Assembly: GCA_948907985.1 (NCBI GenBank)
Contig: CAQWMM010000004.1
Coordinates: forward strand, 319 to 64,318
Length of the DNA stretch: 64,000 nt
Origin: an uncultured Bacillota bacterium
GTDB lineage: Bacteria > Bacillota > Dehalobacteriia > UBA4068 > UBA4997
Direction of reading: 5' to 3'
The notes beneath the pieces are model-generated. The model worked only from the letters and a program-made list of their open reading frames with translations, ran no database searches and was not told the DNA's origin. Positions 23,309 to 60,507 of the stretch are shown here, in pieces; positions within the stretch are counted from its first letter, which is position 1, and the number at the start of each line of letters is the position of its first letter. The translations under genes were made by a program, and so were the position numbers.

Positions 23309-23325
23309 ATTTACGCACTTGACAT

Positions 23326-31533: not shown

Positions 31534-31640
31534 AACCTCCCTTGGTTTCCCATTGGAGGTTTCTTTTACTCTTTTCTAAACAAAGGCTTGCGCCATTGTC
31601 TATCATCAAATTTTGCAAACAATCTAAACTTCTTCCCAGA
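31534..31640. repeat. conserved inter-cassette element copy 1 (bidirectional terminator-like hairpin plus ~75-nt conserved segment)
   Basis: The hairpin aacctcccttggtttcccattggaggtt is followed by tctaaacaaaggcttgcgccattgtctatcatcaaattttgcaaacaatctaaact. Two further intact copies lie at 32507-32615 and 32960-33055. Confidence 0.6.
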
Positions 31641-31733
31641 ATTTTTCCAATTTTCGCCTTTAATCTAGCTTTTTAGCACACAGTATGCTATAATATAGTT
31701 ACTCACCGCCTCAGGCAGAGAGGAGGTGATTTC

Positions 31734-31826
31734 ATGAATTTTTTTATCTCATTTGCCATCGTTGTCTTGGGTAACATAACCTCTCATTATGCTATCAAAT
31801 GGTTGGACAACATATTTAAGCGGTAG
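31734..31826 (+). CDS. Fst/Ldr-like type I toxin candidate, 30-aa hydrophobic peptide MNFFISFAIVVLGNITSHYAIKWLDNIFKR
   Basis: Extended -10 TGCTATAAT (31686-94). RBS AGGAGGTG 6 nt before the ATG. One TM helix and a charged KWLD..R tail. It is followed by a bidirectional terminator and a convergent promoter. The peptide is too short to appear in the ORF track. Confidence 0.55.
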   Translation: MNFFISFAIVVLGNITSHYAIKWLDNIFKR

Positions 31827-31867
31827 TCAGCCTGGGTTTAAGCTACCCTACTTAGTTAAAAAGAATA

Positions 31868-31938
31868 GAAGAACCTCAGCGGCAACTGGGGTTCTTCGTT
31901 TTGCAACTTGATGATTTCATGAATTTTTATTCTCTCAT
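31868..31938 (-). ncRNA. candidate antitoxin antisense RNA 1 (convergent, RNAII-like)
   Basis: Minus-strand promoter TTGACT-17-TAGAAT (plus coordinates 31969-74 and 31946-51). The transcript would end at the shared hairpin 31871-31894. It contains the complement of the toxin translation-initiation region via the direct repeat at 31909-31940. Confidence 0.45.
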
Positions 31939-32019
31939 TGTTATCATTCTACCACACTTACCTAAAAAAGTCAACCCCATTTCTTCACAAAAAAAGCACC
32001 CCCAGTTTCCCGGGGGAGC

Positions 32020-32120
32020 TTTTCGCCTTACTCAAAACCAAGCATTAAAACTCTTCTTGGCTCCCCCTTTGGGGGAGCTGTCAAATATAAGCTGAAAGCT
32101 TTTATTTGACTGAGAGGGCT
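32020..32120. repeat. MITE-like element copy C (partial), inserted into the spacer element of cassette 2
   Basis: Contains gctccccctttgggggagc and caaatataagctgaaagcttttatttg, and ends with gactGAGAGGGct. It replaces the tctaaacaaagg...ttttg part of the conserved spacer. Confidence 0.45.
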
Positions 32121-32241
32121 ATACAAACAATTTGATCCCTTCCCTAAATTTTTTCAATTTTCGTCTTTAATTTAGCTTTTTAGCACACAGTATGCTATAA
32201 TATATTTGCTAAGCGCCTCTTGGCAGAAAGGAGGTGCGAGT

Positions 32242-32331
32242 ATGAATGTATTACTTTCCATTGCCTCTGCCGTTACGGCAAATGTAATCTCCTATTATGT
32301 TTGCAAATGGCTAGACGGCAGACGGCGCTAA
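32242..32331 (+). CDS. Fst/Ldr-like type I toxin candidate, 29-aa peptide MNVLLSIASAVTANVISYYVCKWLDGRRR
   Basis: Extended -10 TGCTATAAT (32193-201). RBS AAAGGAGGTG. Hydrophobic helix plus KWLDGRRR tail. Same cassette architecture as cassette 1. Confidence 0.55.
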   Translation: MNVLLSIASAVTANVISYYVCKWLDGRRR

Positions 32332-32389
32332 GTTAGCCTGGGTGTAAGCTACCCTACTTACTTAAACAAAAAGTTCGTTAAACAGAATA

Positions 32390-32462
32390 GAAGAACCCCA
32401 GCTGCAACTGGGGTTCTTCGTTTTGCATTTGTGCAAATATGAACATATTACTTTAATTTCCT
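32390..32462 (-). ncRNA. candidate antitoxin antisense RNA 2
   Basis: Minus-strand promoter with perfect consensus TTGACA-17-TATAAT (plus coordinates 32492-97 and 32469-74). It ends at the bidirectional hairpin 32393-32416. The direct repeat 32433-32461 mirrors the toxin RBS/start. Confidence 0.5.
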
Positions 32463-32717
32463 TTTATTATTATACCACCAACCCAATCTTTTGTCAAGCA
32501 CAAAAAGAACCCCCTCTCAGTTTCCCATTGGAGGTTTATTTTACTCTTTTCTAAACAAAGGCTGGGAGCCACTGTCTATCATCAAGTTTTGCAAACAATC
32601 TAAACTCTTTCCCAAAATTTTTCCAATTTCAGCTAAACTTCTGGCTTTTTCCCATACCCTGTGCTATAATAGACTTGACCGCATTAAACATACCTGCGGC
32701 GGAGGGAGGTGGGAATT

Positions 32718-32801
32718 TTGCTAGGTTGGTTTCTCACAGTGCTCGGCACCGTAATTGCAAACGTGATTTCTGATTGCATAAGCAAATGGTTAGAACGGTG
32801 A
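32718..32801 (+). CDS. Fst/Ldr-like type I toxin candidate, 27-aa peptide (TTG start) LLGWFLTVLGTVIANVISDCISKWLER
   Basis: Extended -10 TGTGCTATAAT (32662-70). RBS GGAGGGAGGTG 6 nt before the TTG. There is no in-frame ATG, and a GTG 7 codons downstream is an alternative start. Hydrophobic helix plus KWLER tail. Confidence 0.45.
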   Translation: MLGWFLTVLGTVIANVISDCISKWLER

Positions 32802-32839
32802 TAAACAAATCTAATCGGGTCTAGGCTACCTTTAAAGCC

Positions 32840-32914
32840 AGAAAACCCCCAGGTTGCGACTGGGGGTTTTCTCTTTCTAATTTACTAAGTTTTTTCTCAC
32901 AGCTTTAACTTTCT
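32840..32914 (-). ncRNA. candidate antitoxin antisense RNA 3
   Basis: Minus-strand promoter TTGACA-17-TATAAT (plus coordinates 32944-49 and 32921-26). It ends at the hairpin 32843-32870. The direct repeat around 32876-32905 (tttttctcacag) mirrors the toxin start region. Confidence 0.5.
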
Positions 32915-33059
32915 GTATTAATTATACCACCAAGCCAATCTTTTGTCAAGCACAAAAAGAACCTCCCTCAGTTTCCCAAGGGAGGTTCTTCAAACTCATT
33001 TCTAAACAAAGGCGTGAGCCATTGTCTATCATCAAGTTTTGCAAATAATCTAATTTAGA

Positions 33060-36000
33060 TTATTTGATTATTACATTAACAGCGATGACATTCTCACCGT
33101 CTTTCAAAGTAACGTCTGCTTTCTTAATTGTACATTCAAAAACACCGCTCTTTGTCTCGTCAATATCGACTATATCCGCATCAAGCCAAGTAGCATTCAG
33201 CTTAACTTCGATATCTTTAACTTTGTCAGAACCATTGTTTTCAACAGTGAAAGTGATTGCGGAAGTCTTATCCTTAACTGTTCCTACTTCGAAATCATGG
33301 AATCTAACAGTATCGCCATCTTTGTCTTTAACTGTCAGTTTGATATCCTTCTTGAAAGTTGCTTTAGAAGAAGTCTTATCGTCTTCATCATAATCTCTGT
33401 TGGTAACATATTCGTCTACCAATACTGCACCTGCATAACCGTCATCGTTGATAAACGGAACATATGCGTAGGAGTTTCTGCTAATATCGCTCAAAGCGCC
33501 TTCTCTGTACTTACCAGTGTTAGAATCCAGAACGTAAACCACGGTATTAGCGTCTGTCATTACGCGATTTACATAAACATTATTTCCATCAATGTTTGCT
33601 TCATCGCCATAATTCTCATCATCATTATGGAACTCATCCATATAATCGATAAGTACAACAGGATCTTTGAAATAAATCCAGCCGTCATTGAAACCGCTTA
33701 CCAATTTAGCTAAATTGGTCAAGCCATCGGTCTTTTTATAAGACGCCAAAATGTCGATCTCATCACCGGACAATGTGTAAACAATGAAATGACCTGCACC
33801 AGGTTTAGCACCATTAAGAACATCACCCAGATCATAAACTTTATCGTCGCCCTCCAAAGTGATAGCGAAATCGTCTTCACCATTGCTCATAAAGCCAGCA
33901 TGATCAGCATCAGTGAACTTCCAAGCCTTGATTACACCGTAGTACTTGGTGCTGCTATGAGAAGAAGTATAAGCAAATGCTTTAATGCTATGGTTGGTAT
34001 TGCTTATATACTTGGCATAAGCCTGAACAGGCAAGAACTTATAACCATCTGTAGTCAACATTTTAACATCGTCAACTGTTTCTGGCTCAAAATCGCCGCC
34101 GCTCAGCAACGCAGAACGTGTTACTAAAGATACATCCAGTTCATTTTCATCTTCGCCAACCTCAAAAATAACTACATTCGAGGCCAAGGAAGCGGACAAT
34201 CTAGTACCAGTGCTAGTGCCATCTGCTGCTTTTACAGGCTCAGTTACCAAATAAGCGTTGTTCTTAACCTGAATCTCGGTGTTGCCACCATCCAGCATAT
34301 TAGTCCAAGCGCTACCAACTAACTTACCATCTTTATATGCGTCATTACCATTTGCATCTTCAGCATTCCAACCGCCACTAATAGTCTTAATAGCGCCGTC
34401 AGCATTCAACTTATAGGCTACCGGCTGACCCATATATTTCTGTACCATTTCAGTATTCTGCGGTTTACCTTTGCAGTCCTTTGACAAATCATAGGTTACA
34501 GTGTAACCTTCCTGCGTAAACAGGGTGATTGTGGACATGCTCTTGCCCCAGCTGCCGTTGCCGCCACCGTCAACAACTACGCCGTAAAGGGTTGTACCGG
34601 TAGAAGTTTCGTCAACGATAATAGCTGCAATGGTGTTATCCTTATTCAGCAAGTATTTAACATTGTTGTTGTAAACATCTTCAGATGTTACATCAGACTG
34701 TTCCAGATCTTCTTCGTAGAACTGCGGATTCAATGTTACAATACCATCAACATCCTCATCTGCTTTTTGATTAGGATCATTTACAAACACATATTTCTTG
34801 CCGCCGATTGTCGCTTTATGCTGATACCACTTAATATCATCACCATCTTTAAGCGTTCCAACCTCGGTACGGGTAAAGTCGCCGGATTGATCAGTTACTT
34901 TAACATACAATTCGCCTTCTTTGATCTCTCTGATAGCATCGCCAACCTGCAAATCGGAGGGAGCAACAAACTTGCCATCAGCATAAACCAAAGTATCAGC
35001 GTCGTTCATGTTAACAGTCTTGGTCTTGCTACCTACCAAACGAGCAGATGCAGTGGTCATGCTCTTAACGTAGTAAGCTTTGTCTTCAAAATCTCTGTCA
35101 GATGCTACATAGTAAACCTGATCGTCATCATTGAAGTACATAGAATAATTGGTATTCTTCCAATCTTTTTCTACATCATCGGTCAGAGTAGGATCTTTTA
35201 CAGCATTGTAGTTAGTGGAAAGAACTTTAACCTTATTATCGCCATTCTGTTCAACCTTATCGGTTACAGTCTGGATATAAGATTCAACTTCGATAAAACG
35301 AGCATACTTTCTGTCGCCCTCAGTTACATAATAAACTTTGCCCTGATGATGTTCCAAATCGAACAAACCTTCAGCATTGTGGGAAACAGCAGTGTTTTCG
35401 TCAACAATAACATTACCGTCAAAATTATCTTTGCCTACTTTGTTATCGTTGGTGTCTTTTGCCAAGTTGGCAATACGACCAGCAACGTTCCAGTTCAATG
35501 TTTTATCAGCAACATTGCGAACCTGGTTAATAGTAGCAAAGTCATCTACTTCGATAAAGGAACCCTCAAAGCTGTCGTCCAACAAAGTGATGTAGGTAGA
35601 ACCGCTCTTCGTTGTCTGTTTGTAAACAAACTCATTGGTATCTTTATCATAAGTAACAATAGCAGTATCCAATGCTTCACCCAGCATAACAACGATGTCG
35701 CCACGTTTTGCAGCAGCGCTGGCAACGATAGATACATCGTCCATAATGCCAATCTGGTTAGCTTTGGTTACATAGTTTACCGGCCAGCTGCCAGTCAGGT
35801 TGTCATTGTAGCCCAACAAACGCAGCAAAACGGTAATAGCCTCCTGGTTGGAGATGGTATCATTCGGACGGAAGTTGCCGTTGGTGTCGCCCTTGAAAAT
35901 GCCAAGGCTCTCAGCAGCATTAATCCAACCGGTATACCAGCTATTTGCACGAACATCTTTGAAAGCGCTAGCGTTGGCCTCCAACATTGTAGCGGTTTCT

Positions 36001-36236
36001 TTAGCGCCCGCAGCGGTTACGGCAATTTTAGCAAATTCAGCACGAGTAATCGTCTTATCCGGGCCGAAAGTGCCGTCTTCGTAACCTTCAATGATGCCCA
36101 ACGCAACTGCTTTCTTGATTGCGTCCTGCTCCACAACGGGGCGCTCGGAAACATCGCTGAAAGTTGCTGCGTAGGCACTGGCAGAGAATGCAAACATCAT
36201 TACAACTGCCAAAAGAACTACGAGTTTCTTTTTCAT
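33060..36236 (-). CDS. S-layer/SLH-domain surface protein with three N-terminal SLH repeats and a large C-terminal exposed region
   Basis: 1058 aa. It has a signal peptide (MKKKLVVLLAVVMMFAFSASAYA) and N-terminal SLH repeats. The central region is paralogous to 3-2660 (e.g. VVIFEVGEDENELDVSLVTRSALLSGGDFEPET). The RBS is AAGGAGGAAAAAG. Confidence 0.85.
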   Translation of the reverse strand: MKKKLVVLLAVVMMFAFSASAYAATFSDVSERPVVEQDAIKKAVALGIIEGYEDGTFGPDKTITRAEFAKIAVTAAGAKETATMLEANASAFKDVRANSWYTGWINAAESLGIFKGDTNGNFRPNDTISNQEAITVLLRLLGYNDNLTGSWPVNYVTKANQIGIMDDVSIVASAAAKRGDIVVMLGEALDTAIVTYDKDTNEFVYKQTTKSGSTYITLLDDSFEGSFIEVDDFATINQVRNVADKTLNWNVAGRIANLAKDTNDNKVGKDNFDGNVIVDENTAVSHNAEGLFDLEHHQGKVYYVTEGDRKYARFIEVESYIQTVTDKVEQNGDNKVKVLSTNYNAVKDPTLTDDVEKDWKNTNYSMYFNDDDQVYYVASDRDFEDKAYYVKSMTTASARLVGSKTKTVNMNDADTLVYADGKFVAPSDLQVGDAIREIKEGELYVKVTDQSGDFTRTEVGTLKDGDDIKWYQHKATIGGKKYVFVNDPNQKADEDVDGIVTLNPQFYEEDLEQSDVTSEDVYNNNVKYLLNKDNTIAAIIVDETSTGTTLYGVVVDGGGNGSWGKSMSTITLFTQEGYTVTYDLSKDCKGKPQNTEMVQKYMGQPVAYKLNADGAIKTISGGWNAEDANGNDAYKDGKLVGSAWTNMLDGGNTEIQVKNNAYLVTEPVKAADGTSTGTRLSASLASNVVIFEVGEDENELDVSLVTRSALLSGGDFEPETVDDVKMLTTDGYKFLPVQAYAKYISNTNHSIKAFAYTSSHSSTKYYGVIKAWKFTDADHAGFMSNGEDDFAITLEGDDKVYDLGDVLNGAKPGAGHFIVYTLSGDEIDILASYKKTDGLTNLAKLVSGFNDGWIYFKDPVVLIDYMDEFHNDDENYGDEANIDGNNVYVNRVMTDANTVVYVLDSNTGKYREGALSDISRNSYAYVPFINDDGYAGAVLVDEYVTNRDYDEDDKTSSKATFKKDIKLTVKDKDGDTVRFHDFEVGTVKDKTSAITFTVENNGSDKVKDIEVKLNATWLDADIVDIDETKSGVFECTIKKADVTLKDGENVIAVNVIIK

Positions 36237-45950: not shown

Positions 45951-47641
45951 TCACCCCCTGCAAAAACCATATCGGAAAGCGATTTGCCCGGCGCTACCAT
46001 CGGCATAACATCCTCCAGCTCGTCCACCATAACCTCCAGCACCACCGGCCCTTTAGCCGCCTGCGCTTTTAAAAGTCCCTCCTGCAGTTGCTCCGGTTTT
46101 TCCACTTTAATTCCCTGGCAGCCCATCACCTCGCCGAGAGCGGCAAAGCTAAGTTTAAACTCATGCTTAGAGGCCGACATCCGCTCGTTATAAAACATTC
46201 TCTGCCATTGGCGCACCATACCCAAACCGCGGTTATTCAGCACCAAAACCTTAACCGGCAGCTGCTCCTCGGCCAGGGTTGCCAATTCCTGGCAGTTCAT
46301 CATAATACTACCGTCGCTGGAAACCAGCCAAACCTCTTTTGGCTGTTCGCTGCCCTCTTCCACCAAAGCAGCGCCCAGCGCCGCTGGCAGGCCATAGCCC
46401 ATAGTGCCCAGGCCGCCGCTGGTTAAAAAGCTGCGCGGCTGCTTAAACGTCATATACTGCGCCGTCCACATCTGGTGTTGGCCAACGTCGGTACAAATAA
46501 CCGCCTGGCCCTTGGTTAAACGGTTTAACTCTTCCAACACCGCCTCCGGCTTAATCACCTTGTCGGACTTTGCATAAGCCAGCGGCCTTTCTTCTTTCCA
46601 TTTCTGGCAGGTTTTCTGCCATTCGGCAATATTACCAGTAGCCGCATTATCCGTCAGCAGTTTAATTGACCATTTCAAATCACCCTGCAAGCGCCAATCC
46701 ACACGCACATTTTTGTTAAACTCCGCTGGATCAATATCCAAATGAACCACCCGCGCCCCCGGCGCAAAAGTTTGCAGGGTGCCGGTAACCCGATCGTCAA
46801 AGCGCACGCCCAGCCCCAGCAGCAAATCGGTATGCTGTACCGCCATATTAGCTGCATAAGTGCCGTGCATACCCAACATACCCAAATGCAGCGGCTTGTC
46901 CGTCGGATAGGCAGAAAGCCCCATCAGACTGGCGCAAACCGGAATACCGGTTTTTTCAATAAAAGTATTCAGCTCTGCCGACGCGCCGCTGCTCACCAGA
47001 CCGCCGCCGATAAACAGCACTGGGCTATGGCTGCGGCCAAGCGCATCACAGATAGACTGCAAGTCAGAAGTATCCCCCTCCGCTTTTGGCTGATAACTCC
47101 ATTTCAGGCTGGCCAAATCCGCCGAATAATCCCACTCGCCCTCATCAACTAAAACATCTTTGGGAATATCCACCACCACCGGGCCGGGCCGGCCAGTGCG
47201 GGCAATATAAAAAGCTTTCTTCAAAATCAGGGGCAGCTGTTCAACGTCCGGCACCAAAAAATTGTGCTTGGTAATCGGCGTAGTTATGCCAATCATATCC
47301 GCTTCCTGAAAAGAATCCTTGCCGATAGCCGGTCTGGTAACCTGGCAGGTAATACAAACCAGTGGTATAGAATCCATATTGGCGGTAGCAATGCCCGTAA
47401 CCAAATTAGTAGCTCCCGGCCCGCTGGTGGATACGCAAACCCCCACCTGGCCGGAACGCCTGGCAAAACCGTCCGCCGCATGCACCGCGCCCTGCTCATG
47501 GCGGGTTAAAATATGGCGCAGGCCACTGTCATAAATCGCGTCATAAAGCGGCAAAGCCTGGCCGCCCGGATAACCGAAAATTGTTTTGATACCCTCTGCT
47601 TTGATGGCCTCCACCACCATTCTTGCACCACTTAACTGCAT
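45944..47641 (-). CDS. ilvB: acetolactate synthase large (catalytic) subunit, biosynthetic type
   Basis: 565 aa. ThDP-dependent enzyme with three domains. The conserved GGLGTMGYGLPAALGA block is present. Confidence 0.85.
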   Translation of the reverse strand: MQLSGARMVVEAIKAEGIKTIFGYPGGQALPLYDAIYDSGLRHILTRHEQGAVHAADGFARRSGQVGVCVSTSGPGATNLVTGIATANMDSIPLVCITCQVTRPAIGKDSFQEADMIGITTPITKHNFLVPDVEQLPLILKKAFYIARTGRPGPVVVDIPKDVLVDEGEWDYSADLASLKWSYQPKAEGDTSDLQSICDALGRSHSPVLFIGGGLVSSGASAELNTFIEKTGIPVCASLMGLSAYPTDKPLHLGMLGMHGTYAANMAVQHTDLLLGLGVRFDDRVTGTLQTFAPGARVVHLDIDPAEFNKNVRVDWRLQGDLKWSIKLLTDNAATGNIAEWQKTCQKWKEERPLAYAKSDKVIKPEAVLEELNRLTKGQAVICTDVGQHQMWTAQYMTFKQPRSFLTSGGLGTMGYGLPAALGAALVEEGSEQPKEVWLVSSDGSIMMNCQELATLAEEQLPVKVLVLNNRGLGMVRQWQRMFYNERMSASKHEFKLSFAALGEVMGCQGIKVEKPEQLQEGLLKAQAAKGPVVLEVMVDELEDVMPMVAPGKSLSDMVFAGGEC

Positions 47642-48984
47642 TCTTCAACCTCCTTAACAGCCAGCCAAATTGCACATTCCAGGCGCATCCGGCTAATTTG
47701 GCAGCCCATTTCATAAGGCTGCATAATATCATGATGAAAAAGTTCAGCGTTAGCATGGCAGCCGCCGCTGCAAAAAAATCTGGCCCAACAGTTCCGGCAG
47801 CTTTTTTTATTATAAACATGCGCCTGGCGAAACTGCTCCTCCAACTCATGGCCACGCTCCGAAATACCATTAGTCAAATCGCCCATCTTAAAGCCTTCGC
47901 GGCCCACAAACTGGTGGCAAGGATAAAAATCACCCTCCGGCGTTACCACCAAATACTCATAGCCCGCGCCACAGCCGGTTAAACGCTTGGGCAGGCAGGG
48001 GCCGTGTTTTAAGTCCAGCTTAAAATGAAAGAACTCAAACGGCTGGCCGTCTTCCCGGCGCTGCTGGAATAAATTAGCCAACTTCCAATATTCTGCCTTT
48101 AACTGCGGCAAATTCTCCTCTAACAGCTTACGTTCGCCCTCCAGTTCCACCGCCGGTTCCATGGAAAGTCTGGGAAAGCCCAAATCCAGCCAATGTTTAA
48201 TATCCTCGCAAAAATCCTTATTAAAAGCTGTATAAGTGCCGCGCACAATCGCGTTGCCGCGGCTGTTCTGCGCCAAAAACTGTTTAATATGCTCCGTTAC
48301 AATCTGATAACTGCCCTTGCCGCCCGCTGTAACCCTCTGGCGATCGTGCACTTCCGGCCGGCCGTCATGGCTTAAAACCACGCTGATGTTTTCCTGTTCC
48401 GCCCAGGCAGAAATTTCCGGCGTCAGTCCTACGCAGTTAGTAGTAAATGTAAAACGGAAAGTTTTGCCATAAGCCTTTTCACGCTCGCGGCCATAAGCCA
48501 CCAGCTTTTTAACCACGTCAATATTTAAAAGCGGTTCACCGCCGAAAAAGTCAACCTCCAAAAAAAGCCGGCTGCCGCTATGCTCCAAAAGATAATCCAG
48601 AGCCGCCGCGCCCACCTCAAAACTCATTCGCGCCCGCTGGCCGCCAAAACTGCCGGTAGAGGCAAAACAATAACGGCAGCGCAGATCGCAGTCGTGGCAA
48701 ACATTCAAACAAAGTGATTTTAAAACCGGCGCCGGCGGTTCGTATTTATCCAAATAGGCGTCTTCGCTGAAGAGAACTCCTTGTTCTTTCAACTCTGCCA
48801 GTTCGTTCAAAATTTCCGCGTCAATTTTCTCCGGCTCTTCGCCGTTTTGCAGATTCTCCAAACAGTCCGCCGTCGCCTGGTCTATCCGCAGCACCGAACC
48901 GCTGTTAATATCCAAAAGCAAAAAGCCGTCTGGCACGGCAAACCAATGTATTTTTTCCAGCTCTTTAGCTGTAATCTGTTGCAT
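47632..48984 (-). CDS. scfB: radical SAM/SPASM-domain peptide maturase (SCIFF/ranthipeptide maturase ScfB-like)
   Basis: 450 aa. The CxxxCxxC motif is CDLRCRYC. The C-terminal SPASM Cys cluster is C..CRNCWARFFCSGGCHA. It is immediately downstream of the SCIFF precursor ORF and has an RBS AAAAGGAG. Confidence 0.75.
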   Translation of the reverse strand: MQQITAKELEKIHWFAVPDGFLLLDINSGSVLRIDQATADCLENLQNGEEPEKIDAEILNELAELKEQGVLFSEDAYLDKYEPPAPVLKSLCLNVCHDCDLRCRYCFASTGSFGGQRARMSFEVGAAALDYLLEHSGSRLFLEVDFFGGEPLLNIDVVKKLVAYGREREKAYGKTFRFTFTTNCVGLTPEISAWAEQENISVVLSHDGRPEVHDRQRVTAGGKGSYQIVTEHIKQFLAQNSRGNAIVRGTYTAFNKDFCEDIKHWLDLGFPRLSMEPAVELEGERKLLEENLPQLKAEYWKLANLFQQRREDGQPFEFFHFKLDLKHGPCLPKRLTGCGAGYEYLVVTPEGDFYPCHQFVGREGFKMGDLTNGISERGHELEEQFRQAHVYNKKSCRNCWARFFCSGGCHANAELFHHDIMQPYEMGCQISRMRLECAIWLAVKEVEECS

Positions 48985-49080: not shown

Positions 49081-49218
49081 TTATTTTTCGCAGGCCTGAT
49101 TGCCGACTGTGCAAGAAGTTTTGCAGGCCGACTGGCAGGAGCTTTGGCAGTTGCCGCAGCCGCCGGTTTTTGCTGTTTGCTGCAATTTACCGGAGATTAC
49201 CACCTGAATATGTTTCAT
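49081..49218 (-). CDS. scfA: SCIFF (six Cys in forty-five residues) ranthipeptide precursor
   Basis: Exactly 45 aa: MKHIQVVISGKLQQTAKTGGCGNCQSSCQSACKTSCTVGNQACEK. RBS GGAGGCAGATGAA. It is absent from the ORF track because it is shorter than 60 aa. Confidence 0.8.
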   Translation of the reverse strand: MKHIQVVISGKLQQTAKTGGCGNCQSSCQSACKTSCTVGNQACEK

Positions 49219-49391
49219 TTCATCTGCCTCCTTATTTTTTGCTTATTTGATTGATTATATCACAAATTAACTCTCTCTTCAATAGGCCAGGCCCAAAAAA
49301 ACGCTTGCAGACAAAAAAATCAATCATTTTGCACCCGCCGCCTTTTACAAGCATAAATATAAATATCAAAATTAAAAGGAGGTTCTTCAAA

Positions 49392-49706
49392 ATGCTTTTA
49401 AACTCTATCTATGGCAACACCTGCGGCAGCTGTGGCTGCGGCAACAACGGCAGCTTATTTGCCAACAACAACACCGGCTGCAACAGCTGTGGCTGCAATG
49501 GCGGCTGTAACAACTGCGGCTGTAACAACTGTGGCTGCAACAATGGTTTTTCCGGCTGTGGCAACAATCTGGGCAACGCCGCCTACGGCTTTGTCGGCGA
49601 TTGGGTAAACATCGTAGTTACCCTCACCGTTCTGCAAAGCATTCTTGGCCTGGTTTGCAACTGGAACTGCGGCTGCGGCTGCGGCACAACCACTTACGCC
49701 AACTAA
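49392..49706 (+). CDS. Cys/Asn/Gly-rich small membrane-anchored protein with repeated CGCNN motifs (novel; possible RiPP precursor or metal-binding peptide)
   Basis: 104 aa: MLLNSIYGNTCGSCGCGNNG...CNSCGCNGGCNNCGCNNCGCNNG...WVNIVVTLTVLQSILGLVCNWNCGCGCGTTTYAN. A strong RBS AAAGGAGG lies 8 nt before the ATG. It is transcribed divergently from scfA and followed by a terminator. Confidence 0.6.
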   Translation: MLLNSIYGNTCGSCGCGNNGSLFANNNTGCNSCGCNGGCNNCGCNNCGCNNGFSGCGNNLGNAAYGFVGDWVNIVVTLTVLQSILGLVCNWNCGCGCGTTTYAN

Positions 49707-49752
49707 TTTGCGCCAACAAACTTCAACTTATTCCAGAACAGAACAAAGCGGT

Positions 49753-49795
49753 CGGTATCTTTAAGCCGGCCGCTTTTCTCAAAAAATCTTTTTCT
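49753..49795 (+). terminator. intrinsic terminator after the Cys-rich ORF
   Basis: The hairpin agcggtcgg-tatctttaag-ccggccgct is followed by a T-rich run. Confidence 0.5.
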
Positions 49796-49822: not shown

Positions 49823-50761
49823 ATGAATAAACAGGAAGTAATTAACCGTCTGCATGAAACCAGTCAGGCTCTGGAACAGCTGGCTCAGCATTTAAGCGAG
49901 CTGGAACCAGCGCAGGCGGAAACCGAAACCAGCCCGACAGCGGATATAACAGCTGCGGCAGACACAACAGACATAACAGACGCAACAGATACTTCGGATG
50001 CGACAGAAGATGAAGAAGACCCCGCCCCCCCGGCCGAATTTATATCGCACGCGGAAACCAATTCAGAAATAGCCGATTTAATTATCGAAACCACTTTTGA
50101 GCCTATCGACGATGAACCGGCAAAAAAAAATGACGATTCAACCAATTCTTCGGTCAAAAGCGCTAACGCCCCCTTCAATTTTTCAGCAAACGGTTCAAAT
50201 AATAACCCATTTGCTAAAATTATCAACAATCTGTTGAGCAAACCAATTCCCAATGCCAACAATCTGGGCGCTTTTAATCCTCTGCAAATGTTAACCGGCG
50301 GACTTGGCGGTTTGCCCGGAGGGCTATCAGGTTTGCCCGGAGGGCTATCAAATTTGCCCGGCTTAAACGGTCAATCCCTGCCCGCCACTCTGGCCGAACT
50401 GCATGATAACCCTCAACTTTTAGGTATGATTAAAAATGTCAGCAACAATCCACAAATGCTTAATATGCTCTCTGCCCTGACCGGACAGGACAGTCAAACC
50501 CTCCAACAAACCCTGCAAAGCTTACAGCCCAAACCTGACAACATCACTGCACAACCAAACAGTCAACCCGGCGTTCAATCAGACGTTCAGCCAACAATTC
50601 AAGCTGCCGCCAGACAGGCCGCTATACCGCAAACTGAATTTACTCCCTTAAATATTGCCAATTCTGCTGACGCCGCCGGTAGTCTGCCTTCCACTCCCTA
50701 CCTTGATTCTCTGCTGGCCGAATGGCATTGGCAGCCCTACGCCCGCGCCTGGAATTTTTAA
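49823..50761 (+). CDS. hypothetical acidic low-complexity protein with GGLPGGLSGLPGGLSNLPGLNG repeats
   Basis: Start at MNKQEVINRLHE with RBS AAGGAGG. The central region is Asp/Thr-rich (TADITAAADTTDITDATDTSDATEDEED). The listed ORF start at 49601 overlaps the preceding gene and is probably wrong. Confidence 0.55.
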   Translation: MNKQEVINRLHETSQALEQLAQHLSELEPAQAETETSPTADITAAADTTDITDATDTSDATEDEEDPAPPAEFISHAETNSEIADLIIETTFEPIDDEPAKKNDDSTNSSVKSANAPFNFSANGSNNNPFAKIINNLLSKPIPNANNLGAFNPLQMLTGGLGGLPGGLSGLPGGLSNLPGLNGQSLPATLAELHDNPQLLGMIKNVSNNPQMLNMLSALTGQDSQTLQQTLQSLQPKPDNITAQPNSQPGVQSDVQPTIQAAARQAAIPQTEFTPLNIANSADAAGSLPSTPYLDSLLAEWHWQPYARAWNF

Positions 50762-53221: not shown

Positions 53222-54334
53222 TTAGTTAGCTAAACGCAGCGGCAGAATAATATAAGTAAAGCTTTCATTATCTTCCTCCGCCATCACGCCCGGCGTTAAA
53301 TTGCCGGATAACTTCATATAAATATTTTCGCTGTTGCTGACTTTCAAAAAGTCCAGAATATATTTCAAATTATAGCCTACCAATAATTCTTCTCCCTGAA
53401 AATCGGCCGGGATAACCTCGCGGATATTGCCAATATCGGTAGTATTAGCGGTTATCACAATCTGGCCGTCGGCAAATTCCAGGCGCACCGTATTATTAGC
53501 GTCTTTGCTAAGCAGACTGGCGCGCTTTAAGGCGCTGCCCAAAAGCTGCTTATTAACAAAGGCCTGATGTTTAAAACTTTCCTCCTTAGGAATAATCGGC
53601 CGATAATCCGGAAACTGCCCGGAAATCAAACGGGAAACAAAAATTGTCGCTCCCAGCTTAAAACAGGCGTTGTTATGGCTGATGCTGACTTCCACCTGCT
53701 CTTCAGCGTCGGCCAGGTTAGCCACGTCCAGCATTGTTTTAGCCGGTACGATAACCTGAATTTTATCCTCGCTTTGGGTTTGCCAAATTCCCTTGGTTAA
53801 AGTCAGACGGTGAAAATCGGTCGCCACCATATTCAAATTTTTTCCCTCAATATCCAACATAACACCGGTTAAAATCGGCTGAATTTCATCGTTAGCCGAG
53901 GCAATCGCCGTCTGTTTAACCATACGGGCAAAAACTTCGCCTTTAATGCTGGCCTGCAAATCGCCGGTCAGGCTGGGCAGCTGCGGGAACTGTTCGCTTT
54001 CAAAACCGCGCATATTAATAGAAGAAGAGCCATAATTAATATTAATATCACAATCGTTGATAAGACTTAGATTAATATTATTATCCGGCAGTTGTCTAAC
54101 CAGATCAATAAAACGTTTGCCGTCGGCAATCACCATTTGGCCGGGCTGCACAACGTCAGCCGACATATTGCATTGAATGGCAATATCCAAATCTGTAGCG
54201 CGCAGGGTTAAATAATTTTCTTCAGCAATCAGTAATATACCGTTCAAAATCGGCATAGTGTTTTTAGAAGAAATAGCTTTGCCGATGATCTGAACGGCAT
54301 AAAGCAAATCTTCTTTTTGACAGTTAATATTCAT
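53222..54334 (-). CDS. dnaN: DNA polymerase III beta sliding clamp
   Basis: 370 aa. The N-terminus MNINCQKEDLLYAVQIIGKAISSKNTMPILNGILL is canonical for DnaN. Confidence 0.9.
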   Translation of the reverse strand: MNINCQKEDLLYAVQIIGKAISSKNTMPILNGILLIAEENYLTLRATDLDIAIQCNMSADVVQPGQMVIADGKRFIDLVRQLPDNNINLSLINDCDININYGSSSINMRGFESEQFPQLPSLTGDLQASIKGEVFARMVKQTAIASANDEIQPILTGVMLDIEGKNLNMVATDFHRLTLTKGIWQTQSEDKIQVIVPAKTMLDVANLADAEEQVEVSISHNNACFKLGATIFVSRLISGQFPDYRPIIPKEESFKHQAFVNKQLLGSALKRASLLSKDANNTVRLEFADGQIVITANTTDIGNIREVIPADFQGEELLVGYNLKYILDFLKVSNSENIYMKLSGNLTPGVMAEEDNESFTYIILPLRLAN

Positions 54335-54832
54335 AAATCAGTAATACTCCCTTCCTGGTCAGCATATTAATAAGCAAACAGTTTTTATAAATTCTTATCA
54401 TCATTATTATCATTTAAACGGTGGTAGTAGTAATAGGCGGTGTTTATTTTGTGGAAAACTTTTTTCAGCTTTGATTTTTAGGGGGTTTGTTTAAATTTTA
54501 GTCCTGGGAAAACCTATGGGATTTTTGTTGGAAAATACTGTGCATAATTTCCGTTATACACCGCCGCGCCCATTTTTTAACTTTTTGCCAACAGGCGATG
54601 TGTAAAAAGTTTTCCCAAATTCTGTATAATCCGGTGGAAAACTTTTTTTGTGTTCAACTATTATACTATAAATAACTGATTTTCACAATAGCTTTTTAAA
54701 ACTCTTTTTCACTAATCCACAATTAATCACAACAGCGCGCTGTTATTCAGCATAAAAAAAATCCTACCGTTTTTTCAGGTAAGATTTTTTTTATGCGAAG
54801 TAATATTTTTATTAACATTTTATTTACATATT
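54335..54832. promoter_or_regulatory. oriC region part 2 (dnaA-dnaN intergenic): DnaA-box-like sites and AT-rich unwinding-type sequence
   Basis: ttgtggaaaac, ccggtggaaaac and taatccaca are DnaA-box variants. A long A/T stretch (aaaaaaaatcctaccgttttttcaggtaagatttttttt) is a candidate unwinding element. Confidence 0.5.
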
Positions 54833-56182
54833 TTAAGAACGGTTAATAATTGTGGTTAGTTCCTGAATAGATTTTTGCAGGCCAACGTCCACTTTCAGAT
54901 TGTTAGTAATTTTTTTAGTACCGTTTAATACAGTGGTATGGTCGCGTTTGCCGAAATGTTCGCCGATTTCGTTCAGGCTCATATGCAGCAGCGTCTGACA
55001 TAGATACATTGCGATGTGGCGGGGTTTGGTGATGCTCTGGTCGCGCCGGGGAGAGGCCAGGTCGCCGCTTTGCAGATTAAAATAACTGGCTACGCAGTCC
55101 TTAATCAAATCAGGCGAAAGGGCCTGTTTTTGTTTGTTTGGCAGAATATCGTCCATAACCGTTTCGGTCAGGCTCAAATTTATAATAGAAGAATTATTGA
55201 CCAGGGCATAATATTTAACTCGATTAAGGGCGCCTTCCAGTTCACGGATATTAGACGGAATATTGGTAGCTATGTAAGCCAGAGAATCGTTGGTGATTTT
55301 CAGATTTTCAATCGAGGCCTTATATTGCAGAATAGCAATGCGGGTTTCTAAATCCGGCGGCTGAATATCGGTAATCAGACCGCCCTCAAAGCGTGAACGC
55401 AGACGTTCTTCCAGCGTAGCAATATCTTTGGGATGGCGGTCGGAGCTGATAACGATTTGTTTGCCCTGTTCATAAAGAGCGTTAAAGGTATGGAAAAATT
55501 CTACCTGCGTTTCTTCCTTGCCGGCCAAAAACTGAATATCGTCGACCAGAAAAATGTCGGCGGTGCGGTAACGGTTTTTGAATTTGTGAGCGGAACCTTG
55601 CCGTACCGAAGAAATAAATTCGTTAGTAAAGGTTTCGGTAGAAATATATAAAATATTGGTGTTGGGGCGTAAGTTTAACACCCGATGGCCGATGGCGTGC
55701 ATTAAATGGGTTTTGCCAAGGCCGGAGCCGCCGTATAAGAAAAGCGGATTATAATTTTTGGCCGGCCGGTCGGCCACCGCTAAGGCCGCGGCGTGAGCAA
55801 AACGGTTGCTGCTGCCTACTACAAAACTTTCAAAAGTATAACGTGGGTTAAAATTAAAACGATTAGGATTATTATTAAAATTTTCCTGTTGAAAAGGAGC
55901 TTGGTTCTGTTCAGTTTCAGTATTAAAATTCTGATTTTCATTTTTAATAAAAACAATATCCAGATTTTCGTCGGCCACCTTGATTGCGCTTTCCTGCAAA
56001 ATCTGTACATAATGCTTTTCCATCCATTCGGCCTGGCCGTCGGAATGAACTTTTATATAAAGGGTAGACTGCCGCTTATCTACATCAATAATATTATCAA
56101 ACCAACGCCGGATGGTTTCCTGACTTAGGTGTTGTTTTAAGTCCGACATAATCTGCGGCCATAATTCATACTTCATACTCAA
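54833..56182 (-). CDS. dnaA: chromosomal replication initiator DnaA
   Basis: 449 aa. The AAA+ Walker A motif is GGSGLGKTHL. The C-terminal HTH is present. Confidence 0.95.
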   Translation of the reverse strand: MSMKYELWPQIMSDLKQHLSQETIRRWFDNIIDVDKRQSTLYIKVHSDGQAEWMEKHYVQILQESAIKVADENLDIVFIKNENQNFNTETEQNQAPFQQENFNNNPNRFNFNPRYTFESFVVGSSNRFAHAAALAVADRPAKNYNPLFLYGGSGLGKTHLMHAIGHRVLNLRPNTNILYISTETFTNEFISSVRQGSAHKFKNRYRTADIFLVDDIQFLAGKEETQVEFFHTFNALYEQGKQIVISSDRHPKDIATLEERLRSRFEGGLITDIQPPDLETRIAILQYKASIENLKITNDSLAYIATNIPSNIRELEGALNRVKYYALVNNSSIINLSLTETVMDDILPNKQKQALSPDLIKDCVASYFNLQSGDLASPRRDQSITKPRHIAMYLCQTLLHMSLNEIGEHFGKRDHTTVLNGTKKITNNLKVDVGLQKSIQELTTIINRS

Positions 56183-56672: not shown

Positions 56673-56684
56673 AATTTGTTAAAA

Positions 56685-57122
56685 ATGCTGAAAAAACAGT
56701 ATCGCTTAAAAAGAAGACAGGACTTTCGTCGGGTTTATCAACATGGCAAAACGCTGAAAAACCGGGCTTTTGTGATATGCTATCGCAAGATAGCATATCG
56801 TAAGGCAGCATATCAGAAAACGGCGTATCAGAAAGCAGCAGTTAATAATACGGCTTATCAGAAGAAAAACAAGTGCGCAGAACAGCCGAAAGCGCGCTTG
56901 GGTTTTTCTGTGTCTAAAAAAATCGGCAAAGCAGTAGAGCGTAACCGTGTGCGCCGCAAATTGCGCGAGGCCTGCCGTTTAGAGTTGGCCGCTTTTGCGC
57001 CCGGCTATGATTATGTTCTGATTGCCCGTCAAGGCGCTAAGAATGAAACTGTGGAAGGGCTGCGCCGTTACCTGTTAAAAGCTTTGCAGGAAGTTAATTT
57101 ACGGGAAGTTGAAAAAAAATAA
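56685..57122 (+). CDS. rnpA: RNase P protein component, with an internal AYQK-repeat insertion
   Basis: The RnpA RNR motif is [12 protein letters not shown]. The start is moved to the ATG at 56685. An insertion of about 25 aa, [25 protein letters not shown], arises from tandem 15-nt DNA repeats. Confidence 0.8.
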
Positions 57123-57171
57123 CCGTGGTACAGACGAAAAACGAATCCGCGGTTCAAAAAAGGCAGAAAAT

Positions 57172-57381
57172 ATGAGCAGGCTCTTATTAATGTTAATTCG
57201 GTTTTATCGCGCGGCAATATCGCCGCTTTTGGGTGCAAATTGTCGTTTTATTCCCACCTGTTCGGCTTATGCTATGCAGGCCATCGAAAAATACGGTGCA
57301 TGGAAAGGCGGCTGGTTAGCTTTGCGCCGCATTTTGCGTTGCCATCCTTTTTGCAAAGGCGGCTATGATCCGGTTCCCTGA
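57172..57381 (+). CDS. yidD: membrane protein insertion efficiency factor YidD
   Basis: [42 protein letters not shown] is the canonical YidD sequence. Confidence 0.8.
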
Positions 57382-57485
57382 AAGTGAAAAATCAGAAAGT
57401 AAAACGAGATAATAAATTTTTGTAGAAAAGTATGTTTGCCAAAATAAAAAATGGCAGTTAAAACGAGAGGATATTATTAAAAAAT

Positions 57486-58364
57486 ATGTCATTAGAAGTT
57501 TTTGTAGCTAACTGTTTAGAGGCTATTTTTAATCTGACGCAAACGCTGGGTTTTCCCAGTTACGCCATAGCGATTTTTGTTATTGCTGTTATCATCAGGA
57601 TGATTTTGCTGCCGCTTAACATTAATCAGCTGCGTTCCAGCGTGGCCATGCAACAGATTCAGCCGCAGGTTCAGGAATTGCAGGAGCGCTACGCCGCCAA
57701 TCCGGAGTTAATGAATCAAAAGCTGATGCAGCTGTATCAGGATTATAATATTAATCCGCTTTCCGGCTGCCTGCCAATGTTGATTCAATTCCCGATTATG
57801 ATAGGCCTTTATAACGGGTTAAGGCAGTTTATACCCCTGCACCAGGAATTTTATAAATTTTTATGGATACCGGATCTTGGTCAGACGGATACCACCTATA
57901 TTATGGTAATTTTAGTGGCTGGCAGTACCTTTTTGCAGAGTTATATTATAACCGGCAAACCCACCCAGCCAATGCAAAAATATATGCTTTTTGCCATGCC
58001 CCTGATGATGGGCTGGATGGCGGCTTCTTTTCCGGCCTTTTTGTGTATTTACTGGCTGGGTGTAACCATTGTGGGTATTTTACAACAGCTGATTATTAAC
58101 AAACCAATGCGGGCTAAAATGCAGCAGCGGGCGGAAGAACTGGAAGAAGAAAAACGCCGAAAAAATGAAGAGCGAGCCAACGGCAAATCCAGAGTCAGCC
58201 GCAATCACAACAGAAAAGCCAATAAGGCGGAAAATAGCAGCGGCGAGCCGGCGGTTTCTCTGCAAAAAAATAATAAAGATGATAAGGCGAACGCCGAAAA
58301 GGCTGAAAACGATGATGAAAATACTGCGGAAACGCCTAAAAAGCGCCGGCGCAGACGCCGCTAA
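57486..58364 (+). CDS. yidC: membrane protein insertase YidC/OxaA (short Gram-positive type)
   Basis: 292 aa with 5 TM helices. The C-terminal tail is basic (KKRRRRRR). Confidence 0.85.
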   Translation: MSLEVFVANCLEAIFNLTQTLGFPSYAIAIFVIAVIIRMILLPLNINQLRSSVAMQQIQPQVQELQERYAANPELMNQKLMQLYQDYNINPLSGCLPMLIQFPIMIGLYNGLRQFIPLHQEFYKFLWIPDLGQTDTTYIMVILVAGSTFLQSYIITGKPTQPMQKYMLFAMPLMMGWMAASFPAFLCIYWLGVTIVGILQQLIINKPMRAKMQQRAEELEEEKRRKNEERANGKSRVSRNHNRKANKAENSSGEPAVSLQKNNKDDKANAEKAENDDENTAETPKKRRRRRR

Positions 58365-58400
58365 AATTGTCTGACAAGATATTTGAAAAGAGGATATAAG

Positions 58401-59093
58401 ATGAAGATTATGGAGAAAAAGGTTTTAGAAAAATCTGCAAAAACGGTAGAGGCCGCTATTCAGCTGGCTTTACAGGAAATTGGCCTTAGCCGCGACGAAG
58501 TGGATATTGAGATTGTCGATCCTGGCTCTAAGGGTGTGCTGGGGCTGTTTGGCGGCAAAGATGCGGTTGTTAAGGTCAGTTATAACGACCAGGATCGCGG
58601 GCGGGACGCGATTGCCTTTTTGCAGCCGATTTTTACGATGCTTAAAGTGGAAGAACAACCCAGCTATACCATCGAGTTTAAAGAAGAAGATATGCTTTGG
58701 ATTACATTCTCCGGCCAGGGCCTGGGTTCGGTTATCGGGCGCCGGGGCGAAACCTTGGACGCTTTGCAATATTTAACTAATTTAGTGGTTAACCGTCAGT
58801 TTGAGGAAAAATGCCGTATAGTGCTTGACGTAGAAGGTTATCGGGCCGAGCGCGAAAAAACGCTTACCCATTTAGCCAAAAAAATGGCGGATAAAGCGCG
58901 CCGCAGCGGCCGCGATGTGATGTTGGAGCCAATGAGTCCGCACGAGCGGCGGGTTATCCATATCGCTTTGCAGAACGAGGCTGGCATTAAAACCGTTAGC
59001 GTAGGCGAAGAACCTTACCGTAAGATTATTATTAAATCTCTGCACAGCAACCGCGGCCGTAATCGCAATCGGGAAGAAAGGCCGCAGTTATAA
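58401..59093 (+). CDS. jag: Jag/KhpB RNA-binding protein (KH and R3H domains)
   Basis: Start at MKIMEKKVLEKS with RBS AAGAGGA. The R3H region is HERRVIHIALQNEAGIKTVSVGEEPYRKI. Confidence 0.8.
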   Translation: MKIMEKKVLEKSAKTVEAAIQLALQEIGLSRDEVDIEIVDPGSKGVLGLFGGKDAVVKVSYNDQDRGRDAIAFLQPIFTMLKVEEQPSYTIEFKEEDMLWITFSGQGLGSVIGRRGETLDALQYLTNLVVNRQFEEKCRIVLDVEGYRAEREKTLTHLAKKMADKARRSGRDVMLEPMSPHERRVIHIALQNEAGIKTVSVGEEPYRKIIIKSLHSNRGRNRNREERPQL

Positions 59094-59094
59094 A

Positions 59095-60507
59095 ATGTTG
59101 GGCAATACGATTGCTGCAATCGCTACGCCGCCGGGCAATGGAGCCATTGGAATTATCAGAATCAGCGGTCCGGAGGCTTTGGCGGTGCTGCAAAAGATTT
59201 TTTGGCCGGCAGGCGCTTTGTCTGCCGGTCTTTTTAAACCGGAACCGCGCAAATTATATCTCGGGCAGATAAAAAATACCGACGGCAGTATCTTAGACCA
59301 GTCAATGGCGGTTTATATGCCGGCGCCTCATTCTTATACAGGCGAGGACGTGGCCGAACTGCAATGCCATGGCGGTTATTTGGTATGTCATGAAGTTCTG
59401 GCGGCGGTTTGCCGGGCCGGGGCGCAGCTGGCCGAACCGGGAGAGTTTAGCACGCGTGCTTTTATCAATGGTAAGCTTTCTTTGGACCAGGCGGAAGCCA
59501 TAATTGATATTATTGAGGCTAAAAGCGTCGAGGCCTTAAAAATATCAGAACGGCAGCTGGCCGGCAGTCTACAGCAACGGCTGGATAAATCAGCCGATGC
59601 GCTTTTGGATATTTTGGCGCAGTTGGAATTGGCGGTTGATTATCCGGAAGAAACCGATGATCAGGCTTTGCAGCGGCAAATTTTGCAGGAGCTGACCGCC
59701 GTACAGGCCGAAGTACAAAAATTGCTTAATCAGACTAAAAGCGGCCGCTATTTTCGTCAGGGTGCGCTAACGGCCATTGTCGGCCCCGCTAATGCCGGCA
59801 AGTCCACCTTATTGAACGCTCTGCTGCAAGTGGAACGCGCTATTGTAACCTCGCAGGCCGGTACCACCCGCGACACAGTGGAGGAATATTATTTGCTGGA
59901 CGGCTTGCCTCTGCGTCTTGTGGATACTGCCGGTATCAGAGAAACTGCCGATTTGGTGGAACAGGCCGGAATTGAGCGCAGCAAAAAGGCTCTGACTGAA
60001 GCGGATTTAGTATTACTGACTTTAGACGTTAGTCAGCCGACGAAAGATTTTTGGTTTGATTTGTTGCTTAACAGCGCCCAAAAGGAAAATAAACTGTTGG
60101 TATTGCTTAATAAAATAGATTTGTTGGCTGATAATCAGCTTTATGAGCAGCGTTTGGCCAAATTAACCGAAATTTGTAGAGAAAACGCCGTGCCCCTTTT
60201 GAAACTTTCGGCTAAAGATAATCAGGGTTTAGATGAGCTTAAACAGGCAATTAGCCGGATTTTGTTGGCCGGACAGCCAAACGGCGAACCGATGGCGGCG
60301 CTGTTGAACGACCGGCATAAGGCGGCGTTGTTGACGGCGCAGAATATTTTGGAAAGCGCCTTACAAAACGCGTCTTTGGGCTTTGACGCTGCTATGCTAA
60401 GTATTGATGTACAAATGGCCTGGCAAAGTCTGGCAGAAATAGGCGGCAAGGCTGCCTCCGAGGAAATTATTAACCGGGTTTTCGAGCGTTTTTGCCTGGG
60501 TAAATAA
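59095..60507 (+). CDS. mnmE: tRNA modification GTPase MnmE/TrmE
   Basis: 470 aa. G-domain motifs GPANAGKST and DTAGIRE are present. The C-terminus is CLGK. Confidence 0.9.

Follow-up and report, generated by a model that had tools for sequence, protein, structure and literature searches.

A clade-restricted cysteine-rich small protein with an invariant hydrophobic helix, encoded next to the SCIFF operon of an uncultured Bacillota bacterium: a candidate sporulation protein

Proteins of the YjcZ family are small and almost devoid of charged residues; a single hydrophobic helix follows their Gly(/Cys)-rich N-terminus. The gene that lends its name to this tiny sporulation protein family, B. subtilis yjcZ, belongs to the sigma-K regulon (PMC517825). 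Cysteine-rich proteins are also known from spore surfaces. CdeC and CdeM are lineage-restricted spore-surface proteins without known domains that contain 9% Cys together with NPC and NGNNGGNNNNC repeats, and CotY, CotZ and ExsY self-assemble through disulfides (PMC6101409). Sigma-K promoters have an AC at -35 and a CATATAAT-like -10; in C. difficile and B. subtilis it is this AC together with the CATA-type -10 that separates them from sigma-E promoters (PMC3789822). Cysteines are used in another way in peptides modified by radical SAM enzymes, which can join Cys to Asn in beta-thioethers (NxxcA) and can also link Cys to Thr or Asp; among Clostridia, SCIFF is widespread (PMC8326336).

Here we describe a gene for a 104-residue Cys/Asn/Gly-rich protein, located on a 64-kb stretch of DNA from an uncultured Bacillota bacterium (the whole stretch is called the window). 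The initial annotation had pointed to it as a membrane-anchored peptide divergently paired with the SCIFF operon and offered three candidate roles: a second ranthipeptide-type substrate of the neighbouring radical SAM enzyme, a metal- or sulfide-binding peptide, or a keratin-like structural peptide.

The Cys-rich gene, its product and its family

The gene and the parts of its product are as follows.

49375..49382, + strand: ribosome-binding site AAAGGAGG, 9 nt before the ATG
49392..49706, + strand: coding sequence of the 104-aa Cys/Asn/Gly-rich protein (open reading frame, homologues, codon-position test)
49392..49415, + strand: N-terminal motif MLLNSIYG (family consensus MLxNSI[FY]G, from the family alignment)
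49416..49568, + strand: hypervariable low-complexity linker of CxC and CxxC units with Asn/Gly between them
49466..49543, + strand: array of a 15-nt (5-codon) repeat, ~5.4 copies, inside the linker
49569..49670, + strand: near-invariant core, residues 60-93, LGNAAYGFVGDWVNIVVTLTVLQSILGLVCNWNC (alignment)
49602..49658, + strand: hydrophobic helix, residues 71-89 (Kyte-Doolittle 19-residue mean 1.96)
49671..49703, + strand: variable short C-terminal tail GCGCGTTTYAN

Both the open reading frame and its strong ribosome-binding site are present as first reported, and so are the hydrophobic segment WVNIVVTLTVLQSILGLV and the C-terminus CNWNCGCGCGTTTYAN. The product (MLLNSIYGNTCGSCGCGNNGSLFANNNTGCNSCGCNGGCNNCGCNNCGCNNGFSGCGNNLGNAAYGFVGDWVNIVVTLTVLQSILGLVCNWNCGCGCGTTTYAN) contains 22 Asn, 21 Gly and 16 Cys residues, one Asp and no Lys, Arg, His or Glu, with a pI of ~4; the 21 cysteines counted earlier are in fact the glycines. 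Cys makes up 15.4% of the protein and Cys, Gly and Asn together 57%, a combination of high Cys content and low-complexity repeats as found in Cys-rich spore coat and exosporium proteins. The linker consists of six CxC and four CxxC units with Asn/Gly separators and almost nothing else, and is predicted to be disordered. Its repeated CGCNN units, noted from the start, are encoded by the 15-nt repeat array.

Is such a repetitive stretch a gene at all? The GGC/AAC/TGC codon repeats leave other frames open, among them one that starts MATPAAAV, and gene callers sometimes choose an antisense open reading frame at a related neighbour gene. Both points would fit a non-coding GC-rich repeat or a different true frame. 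Against this stands the pattern of nucleotide change in the core: 26 residues are unchanged across 14 orthologous loci, with a mean third-position identity of 58% in the invariant codons, and the codons that do change do so at the third position in 21 cases, at the first in four and at the second in none. This pattern fits the 49392 frame only and therefore indicates purifying selection on the protein in that frame rather than on DNA or RNA. Proteins of a single 90%-identity cluster (83-92 aa long) differ in their linkers by gain or loss of whole CG/CN units in frame, and across the family the N-terminal motif and the core keep their frame over linkers of 24-72 residues. From this in-frame length variation and the codon-position pattern it follows that the other open frames are by-products of the codon repeats. 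A GGAGG-type ribosome-binding site lies at the equivalent position in all orthologues, and Rfam gave no RNA family match at the locus. The alignment, the codon-position pattern and the length variation within the cluster refute a non-coding repeat or an alternative frame, to which we give practically no credence. Homologues exist as well, and with them falls the proviso of the initial annotation that the locus might lack any and be a mere non-coding repeat. Judged from these comparisons, 49392..49706 is no chance feature but a real, translated protein-coding gene in the frame given; the aligned codons show the helix to be under extreme purifying selection and the linker to vary through in-frame gain and loss of repeats.

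A word-indexed search of 5.8 billion proteins returned 47 homologues of 67-114 aa, none of them named. There are about 50 homologue clusters in total, nearly all from metagenome-assembled genomes (MAGs) of uncultured gut 'Peptococcaceae'/Bacillota. The 185,579 species-representative genomes contain 13 loci, all in MAGs of uncultured 'Peptococcaceae' or Bacillota, including that of Candidatus Avidehalobacter gallistercoris, and their sources, where named, are animal and human guts. Deeper searches changed little: when 1.84 billion representatives were searched exhaustively with HMMER and a 41-position core profile, one divergent relative (P0066) was gained, a second word-indexed search with a widened profile found no further members, and a metagenome contig scan added five loci, every one of an already known type. 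No member was found in cultured spore formers by the species-representative genome and profile searches. Pfam, NCBIfam, PHROG and PDB-sequence searches gave no meaningful match for the window protein, 46 members, the neighbouring Cys-rich proteins or the acidic partner introduced below. By all these searches the family is undescribed, clade-restricted and unannotated, which bears out the initial view of a novel, conserved Cys/Asn/Gly-rich peptide with one hydrophobic anchor helix.

A few matches call for separate mention. P0065 and P0067, which matched the core profile weakly, are spurious: a repeated FQSL[LV]G...NWN unit resembles the LQSILGLVCNWN part of the profile, and both look like translated direct-repeat arrays, possibly CRISPR. 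P0003 (96 aa, on a 555-nt contig) and P0045 (114 aa) have foreign N-termini, the former with an extra hydrophobic segment GGNSALWIIILIIILFGWGG and the latter with a PF03853-like fragment. Neither the window nor any locus compared has a counterpart of these N-termini, and the two proteins are probably chimeras that arose on short contigs in assembly or gene calling.

The homologues share a common layout of MLxNSI[FY]G, a variable linker, the near-invariant block LGNAAFxFVG[DE]WVNIVVTLT[IV]LQSILGLVCNWNC and a short Cys-rich tail that ends in GCNN in most members; 25 columns are invariant in the 46-protein alignment. The number of cysteines ranges from 7 to 20, their spacing varies even within a 90%-identity cluster, and W, Y and F occur in the linkers of many members. 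The linkers of many members, for example P0014 and P0026, contain the motif V[LM]G[TA][SN]T(G), where the window protein has SLFANNNTG instead. The same motif is seen in one member of a second Cys-rich family discussed below (L020, 2165..2185) and, as VAGTST and ILGTST, in both small Cys-rich genes of locus L025 (the P0066 gene at 2659..2826 and its neighbour at 2395..2592). Its sharing suggests a common origin, recombination among the genes or a processing site.

Basic residues (K/R/H) are absent from 44 of the 46 members and 36 have a single acidic residue, which in the window protein is D70, directly before the helix. Nearly all members end 6-16 residues beyond the helix; with the Cys at the end of the helix as the starting point, the tails measure 7-31 residues (median 8). 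Neither the window protein nor the family has a signal peptide, and the N-terminus is uncharged. One hydrophobic segment within ~30 residues of the C-terminus and no signal peptide is the pattern of a tail anchor, and the placement of the helix suggests such a layout, in which the Cys-rich region would therefore remain cytoplasmic. AlphaFold2 predicts a single helix (residues 65-91) in an otherwise disordered protein, at low confidence (pLDDT 47). The invariant helix includes N, T, T, Q and S residues and is identical in L013, where RecF identity is just 50%; together, these polar residues and this constancy point to tight helix-helix packing or to binding of a conserved partner. A protein without basic residues, with a helix unchanged at such a distance and a linker that mutates by repeat slippage, is of unusual design. 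Since it lacks K and R, tryptic proteomics is blind to it.

Promoters, the acidic partner and a second Cys-rich family

The signals and the gene that surround the coding sequence on either side are listed here.

49331..49371, + strand: conserved promoter-like block, present in all 14 orthologous upstream regions, SCIFF-less ones included
49282..49254, - strand: sigma-A-type promoter-like site of scfA, TTGAAG-17-TGnTATAAT (10/12 matches plus an extended -10 TG)
49745..49783, + strand: terminator-like hairpin with a 12-bp G+C-rich stem, then a U-rich tail (fold test)
49823..50761, + strand: partner gene downstream of the Cys-rich gene; its 312-aa product is acidic and mostly disordered

The block upstream of the Cys-rich gene is composed of GCACC (49331-49335), 17 nt between AC and CATA, and CATAAATATAAATATCAAAA (49352-49371), and reads GCACC-N17-CATAAATA at 49331..49359. 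In the form GCACC-N17-CATAAATATAAATATC it is conserved upstream in 14 of 14 loci, and a window-wide scan finds one copy of the motif against 0.01 expected. Unlike a sigma-A promoter, it has no conserved TTG and no T at the last -10 position. With AC at -35 and CATA at -10 the block resembles a sigma-K promoter in layout, but only five of eight positions match the sigma-K -10 example CATATAAT, which comes from C. difficile. When all loci were scanned with a loose version of the motif, mainly the promoters of both Cys-rich families were hit and no recognisable sporulation gene.

The scfA site lies on the opposite strand, 48 bp from this block. The 173-bp divergent promoter region described initially has the size reported, but it is not a shared promoter: it holds two back-to-back promoter-like sites of different types.

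Downstream, the hairpin at 49745..49776 (dG -21.5 kcal/mol, z -5.35, with 0 of 200 shuffles equally stable) and its U-rich tail agree with the claim that the gene has its own terminator. A hairpin of differing sequence is found at the equivalent position in other loci. In some species it leaves no space for a separate partner promoter, and the acidic partner is therefore probably expressed by partial read-through. Only through such read-through can two of the initial statements, that the gene has its own terminator and that it is co-transcribed with the next one, both hold.

The acidic repeat protein itself is as first described, with 312 aa, a pI of 4.1 and two GLPGGLS repeats. Its gene follows the Cys-rich gene in the window and in 12 further loci, and like the latter it is clade-restricted and unannotated. 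AlphaFold2 models it as mostly disordered with conserved helical islands, at a confidence (pLDDT 49) that, like that for the 104-aa protein, is too low to support fold searches. The conserved islands comprise an N-terminal helix, NNNPFAKL, the G/L/P repeats, LPTTLAELHDNPQLL...NNPQMLNML...LTGQD and the C-terminal YLDSLLAEWHWQPYARAW; the segment LPxTLAELHDNPQLLxMLxNVxNNPQMLNMLxxLTGQD is conserved, and the C-terminal LLAEWHWQPYARxW is invariant. The NPQ-x-L repeats recall STI1/ubiquilin-type motifs, which bind hydrophobic helices, but an STI1-like chaperone domain was rejected for want of HMM support.

In sister species a second hypervariable, unannotated Cys-rich gene lies directly upstream of the 104-aa-type gene; it is absent from the window. 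The copies located are:

L005, 7731..7895
L011, 7621..7914
L012, 7448..7732
L014, 7372..7854
L017, 461..793
L018, 7460..7753
L019, 5121..5402
L020, 1965..2585
L023, 9491..9901

The encoded proteins begin with MACCNN..., MAKNC... or MANNN..., share the motifs GGLGIFGRRFPLGG and G-[LC]-G-I-[FW]-G, reach 24% Cys and contain the hypervariable repeats CGC, CNNC and CCDPCQ. Their promoter is sigma-K-like and of the same type as that of the 104-aa gene (GCAC[CA]-N16/17-CATAACCTGTACTATAAA, also in the divergent locus L025). In L021 the public call over this gene is a 141-aa open reading frame on the - strand (4669..5094), as opposed to a + strand frame from 4792. Codon-repeat genes appear to be systematically mis-called, and the second family is for this reason probably under-represented in protein databases.

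The SCIFF operon as a neighbour

On the other side of the divergent region lie the two genes of the SCIFF operon.

49081..49218, - strand: scfA, SCIFF precursor (PF13165 E 1.3e-21, 76.6 bits; TIGR03973 73.2 bits)
47632..48984, - strand: scfB, SCIFF thioether-forming radical SAM/SPASM maturase (TIGR03974 524 bits, cutoff 425)

The adjacency on which the initial annotation had built is real: both genes are identified by their profiles (PF13165, TIGR03974), and the gap of 173 bp between scfA and the Cys-rich gene is confirmed. The order ilvB - scfB - scfA <> Cys-rich gene - partner - murI - recF is shared by the window and its two closest relatives (L008, L009), and divergent placement beside scfA-scfB, confined to one subclade, is seen in the window and ~10 other lineages. 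How firm is this association? In seven further species the second Cys-rich gene lies between scfA and the 104-aa-type gene, on the strand of the latter. In five lineages (L013/L027, L014, L019/L021, L023 and L025) the 2.6-10 kb compared on each side contain neither scfA nor scfB, and no radical SAM gene is listed among the Pfam-annotated neighbours in L021, L023 and L025. The two Cys-rich genes stay adjacent in all five, with ndk, a YitT-like gene or pepF as the upstream neighbours in these SCIFF-less loci. The module still adjoins murI, recF, dnaN and dnaA in L013 and L025, and therefore the scfAB-ilvBN side is the variable one.

The conserved unit is thus the second Cys-rich gene plus the 104-aa-type gene, usually with the acidic partner, and neither this module nor its promoter motif depends on SCIFF for its conservation. 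Local synteny accounts for the divergent pairing with SCIFF, which is direct in the window because the second gene is missing there. The co-occurrence with SCIFF maturases proposed as a check breaks down in the five lineages. More generally, adjacency to a RiPP maturase in one genome is weak evidence for a substrate relationship.

Some other features of the window may be recorded here. It contains a replication-origin gene set (dnaA, dnaN, an S4-domain gene and recF, with rnpA, yidC, jag and mnmE on the other side; 53222..56182 and 56676..60507). The Cys-rich module is ~5 kb from dnaA, an origin-proximal place that is kept in the distant relatives L013, L023 and L025. Three tRNA genes are clustered at 23220..23608 (+ strand). 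Downstream of an SLH-domain gene (1058 aa, 33060..36236, - strand), a 1.6-kb stretch without any open reading frame of at least 100 aa (31526..33053) consists of 3-4 diverged direct repeats of ~450-520 nt, each bearing conserved hairpin-like elements such as GAAGAACCYCAGCNGCAACTGGGGTTCTTC.

Possible roles and known counterparts

What might such a protein do? We favour, with a probability of roughly 0.45, a mother-cell-expressed structural protein of the spore surface or forespore membrane that would be cross-linked through its cysteines. This tentative reading is chosen because the conserved AC-N17-CATA promoter-like motif resembles the signature of mother-cell sigma-K, and because of the analogy with CdeC/CdeM, CotY/CotZ/ExsY and YjcZ. 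Of the three roles first put forward, the keratin-like structural peptide would be the best fit. On this view the mother cell would probably produce the protein late in sporulation, as a small structural component peculiar to the clade. The hydrophobic helix at its C-terminal end would serve either as an anchor, in a tail-anchor topology, or to drive self-assembly, the N-terminal Cys/Gly/Asn region would face the cytoplasm, and the cysteines would cross-link it into the spore coat, the exosporium or a forespore-surface layer. It may act together with the second hypervariable Cys-rich protein, which the genome of the window lacks, and with the acidic disordered partner produced by terminator read-through. 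We infer sigma-K dependence, membrane insertion and topology, cysteine cross-linking and spore localisation.

Several observations bear on this sporulation reading from outside the gene. D. formicoaceticum, the cultured Peptococcaceae-affiliated Dehalobacterium, sporulates (PMC5597755); the relation of the MAGs to Dehalobacterium rests on NCBI labels and a genus name. A comparative-genomics paper on Dehalobacteriia holds no sporulation information. Neither the 64-kb window, with a Pfam scan of ten of its unassigned open reading frames, nor the flanks of the loci yielded a recognisable sporulation-specific gene, and Pfam and NCBIfam searches gave no homology to known coat or exosporium families. 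Coat proteins are usually not membrane-anchored, which counts against the reading as well.

An alternative is a vegetative tail-anchored membrane protein. Its helix would oligomerise in the cytoplasmic membrane or bind a conserved partner there, and its cytoplasmic Cys-rich region would have a role outside the spore, for example in redox buffering or envelope organisation. The tail-anchor-like topology would suit such a protein, the N, T, T, Q and S residues of the helix are compatible with packing of membrane helices, no sporulation genes are nearby, and the housekeeping genes murI, recF, dnaN and dnaA adjoin the locus near oriC. The conserved promoter, however, has no sigma-A -10, whereas the neighbouring scfA has a good sigma-A site, and the companions with CCDPCQ-type repeats look structural, not enzymatic. 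We regard this vegetative role as rather unlikely, though deserving of attention. A membrane-tethered, metallothionein-like binder of metal or sulfide, with CxC and CxxC units forming metal-thiolate clusters, is improbable: the disordered linker made almost entirely of such units and the Cys content agree with it, but the free variation of Cys number and spacing, even inside a 90%-identity cluster, argues against defined metal clusters, many linkers contain aromatic residues, no metallothionein family matches, and no metal-homeostasis genes are adjacent.

More doubtful still is a second ranthipeptide-type substrate in which ScfB would link Cys to Asn or Thr by thioethers within the Cys/Asn-rich region. 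Cys and Asn are both abundant in the peptide, and in the window and ~10 other lineages scfA-scfB is its divergent neighbour. The headline link with SCIFF nevertheless weakens on several counts. Both Cys-rich genes persist in the five lineages without scfAB within 2.6-10 kb, it is the scfAB-ilvBN side that changes while the murI-recF side is stable, another gene separates the peptide from scfA in most linked species, and the two promoters differ in type; the consistent pairing with a radical SAM/SPASM maturase that would mark a ranthipeptide precursor is lacking across the homologues. ScfB is a standard enzyme, which passes its own equivalog cutoff and scores far below those of the Cys-rich-repeat maturase families (CcpM, 167 vs 500; CXXX-repeat, 111 vs 350; CefB, 82 vs 600), outside which it thus falls. 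The peptide has no SCIFF-like leader and no match at E <= 1 to the SCIFF profiles PF13165/TIGR03973, and BLASTP against scfA gives just a 6-residue low-complexity match (E 0.3). Conservation peaks in a hydrophobic helix that follows the putative core, an arrangement unlike a leader-core layout, and SCIFF is widespread in Clostridia that lack the Cys-rich protein. With the linkage broken, the leader absent and the maturase canonical, the substrate role proposed initially is unsupported. A variant that we consider a long shot, slightly behind even the substrate role, has ScfB cross-linking the Cys/Asn-rich proteins of the module, namely the 104-aa protein and the upstream MACCNN.../CCDPCQ-repeat protein of sister species, in trans as structural proteins, through non-alpha thioethers from Cys to Asn or Thr. 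If true, it would tie the near-universal, enigmatic clostridial SCIFF maturase to a thioether-reinforced, membrane-anchored spore or envelope layer. The favoured sporulation reading, if true, would offer a first way into the spore-surface architecture of an uncultured gut lineage and a new type of membrane-anchored coat component.

How, then, does the family compare with described systems? With SCIFF, ranthipeptide and Cys-rich-repeat RiPP precursors it shares, in the window, a small Cys-rich peptide beside a radical SAM/SPASM maturase, and it has thioether donors and possible acceptors (Cys, Asn, Thr). It differs from them in failing the SCIFF HMMs, in having no conserved leader, in its inconsistent linkage to a maturase and in its membrane-type helix. 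The linker of CxC/CxxC motifs, disordered without ligand, is like that of metallothioneins; unlike these, it varies in its Cys pattern, contains aromatic residues and is joined to a membrane-type helix, and no family matches.

The resemblance to sporulation proteins is closer in kind. Like the YjcZ family, the 104-aa family is small, nearly uncharged and has one helix; unlike in YjcZ, this helix is unrelated in sequence and C-terminal, after a long Cys-rich linker, and neither the window protein nor the 46 members match the YjcZ family HMMs (TIGR01732, Pfam YjcZ-like) at E <= 1. With C. difficile CdeC/CdeM and Bacillus CotY/CotZ/ExsY it shares a high Cys content, low-complexity repeats (as the NGNNGGNNNNC of CdeM), the absence of known domains and a narrow lineage; its promoter motif would suggest late expression in the mother cell as well. 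It is set apart from all five by the absence of detectable homology, by smaller size (67-120 aa) and by the lack of basic residues, from CdeC/CdeM by 15% instead of 9% Cys, and from spore-surface proteins as described by its invariant hydrophobic C-terminal helix. The family is best filed with the small, lineage-specific Cys-rich structural, probably sporulation, proteins.
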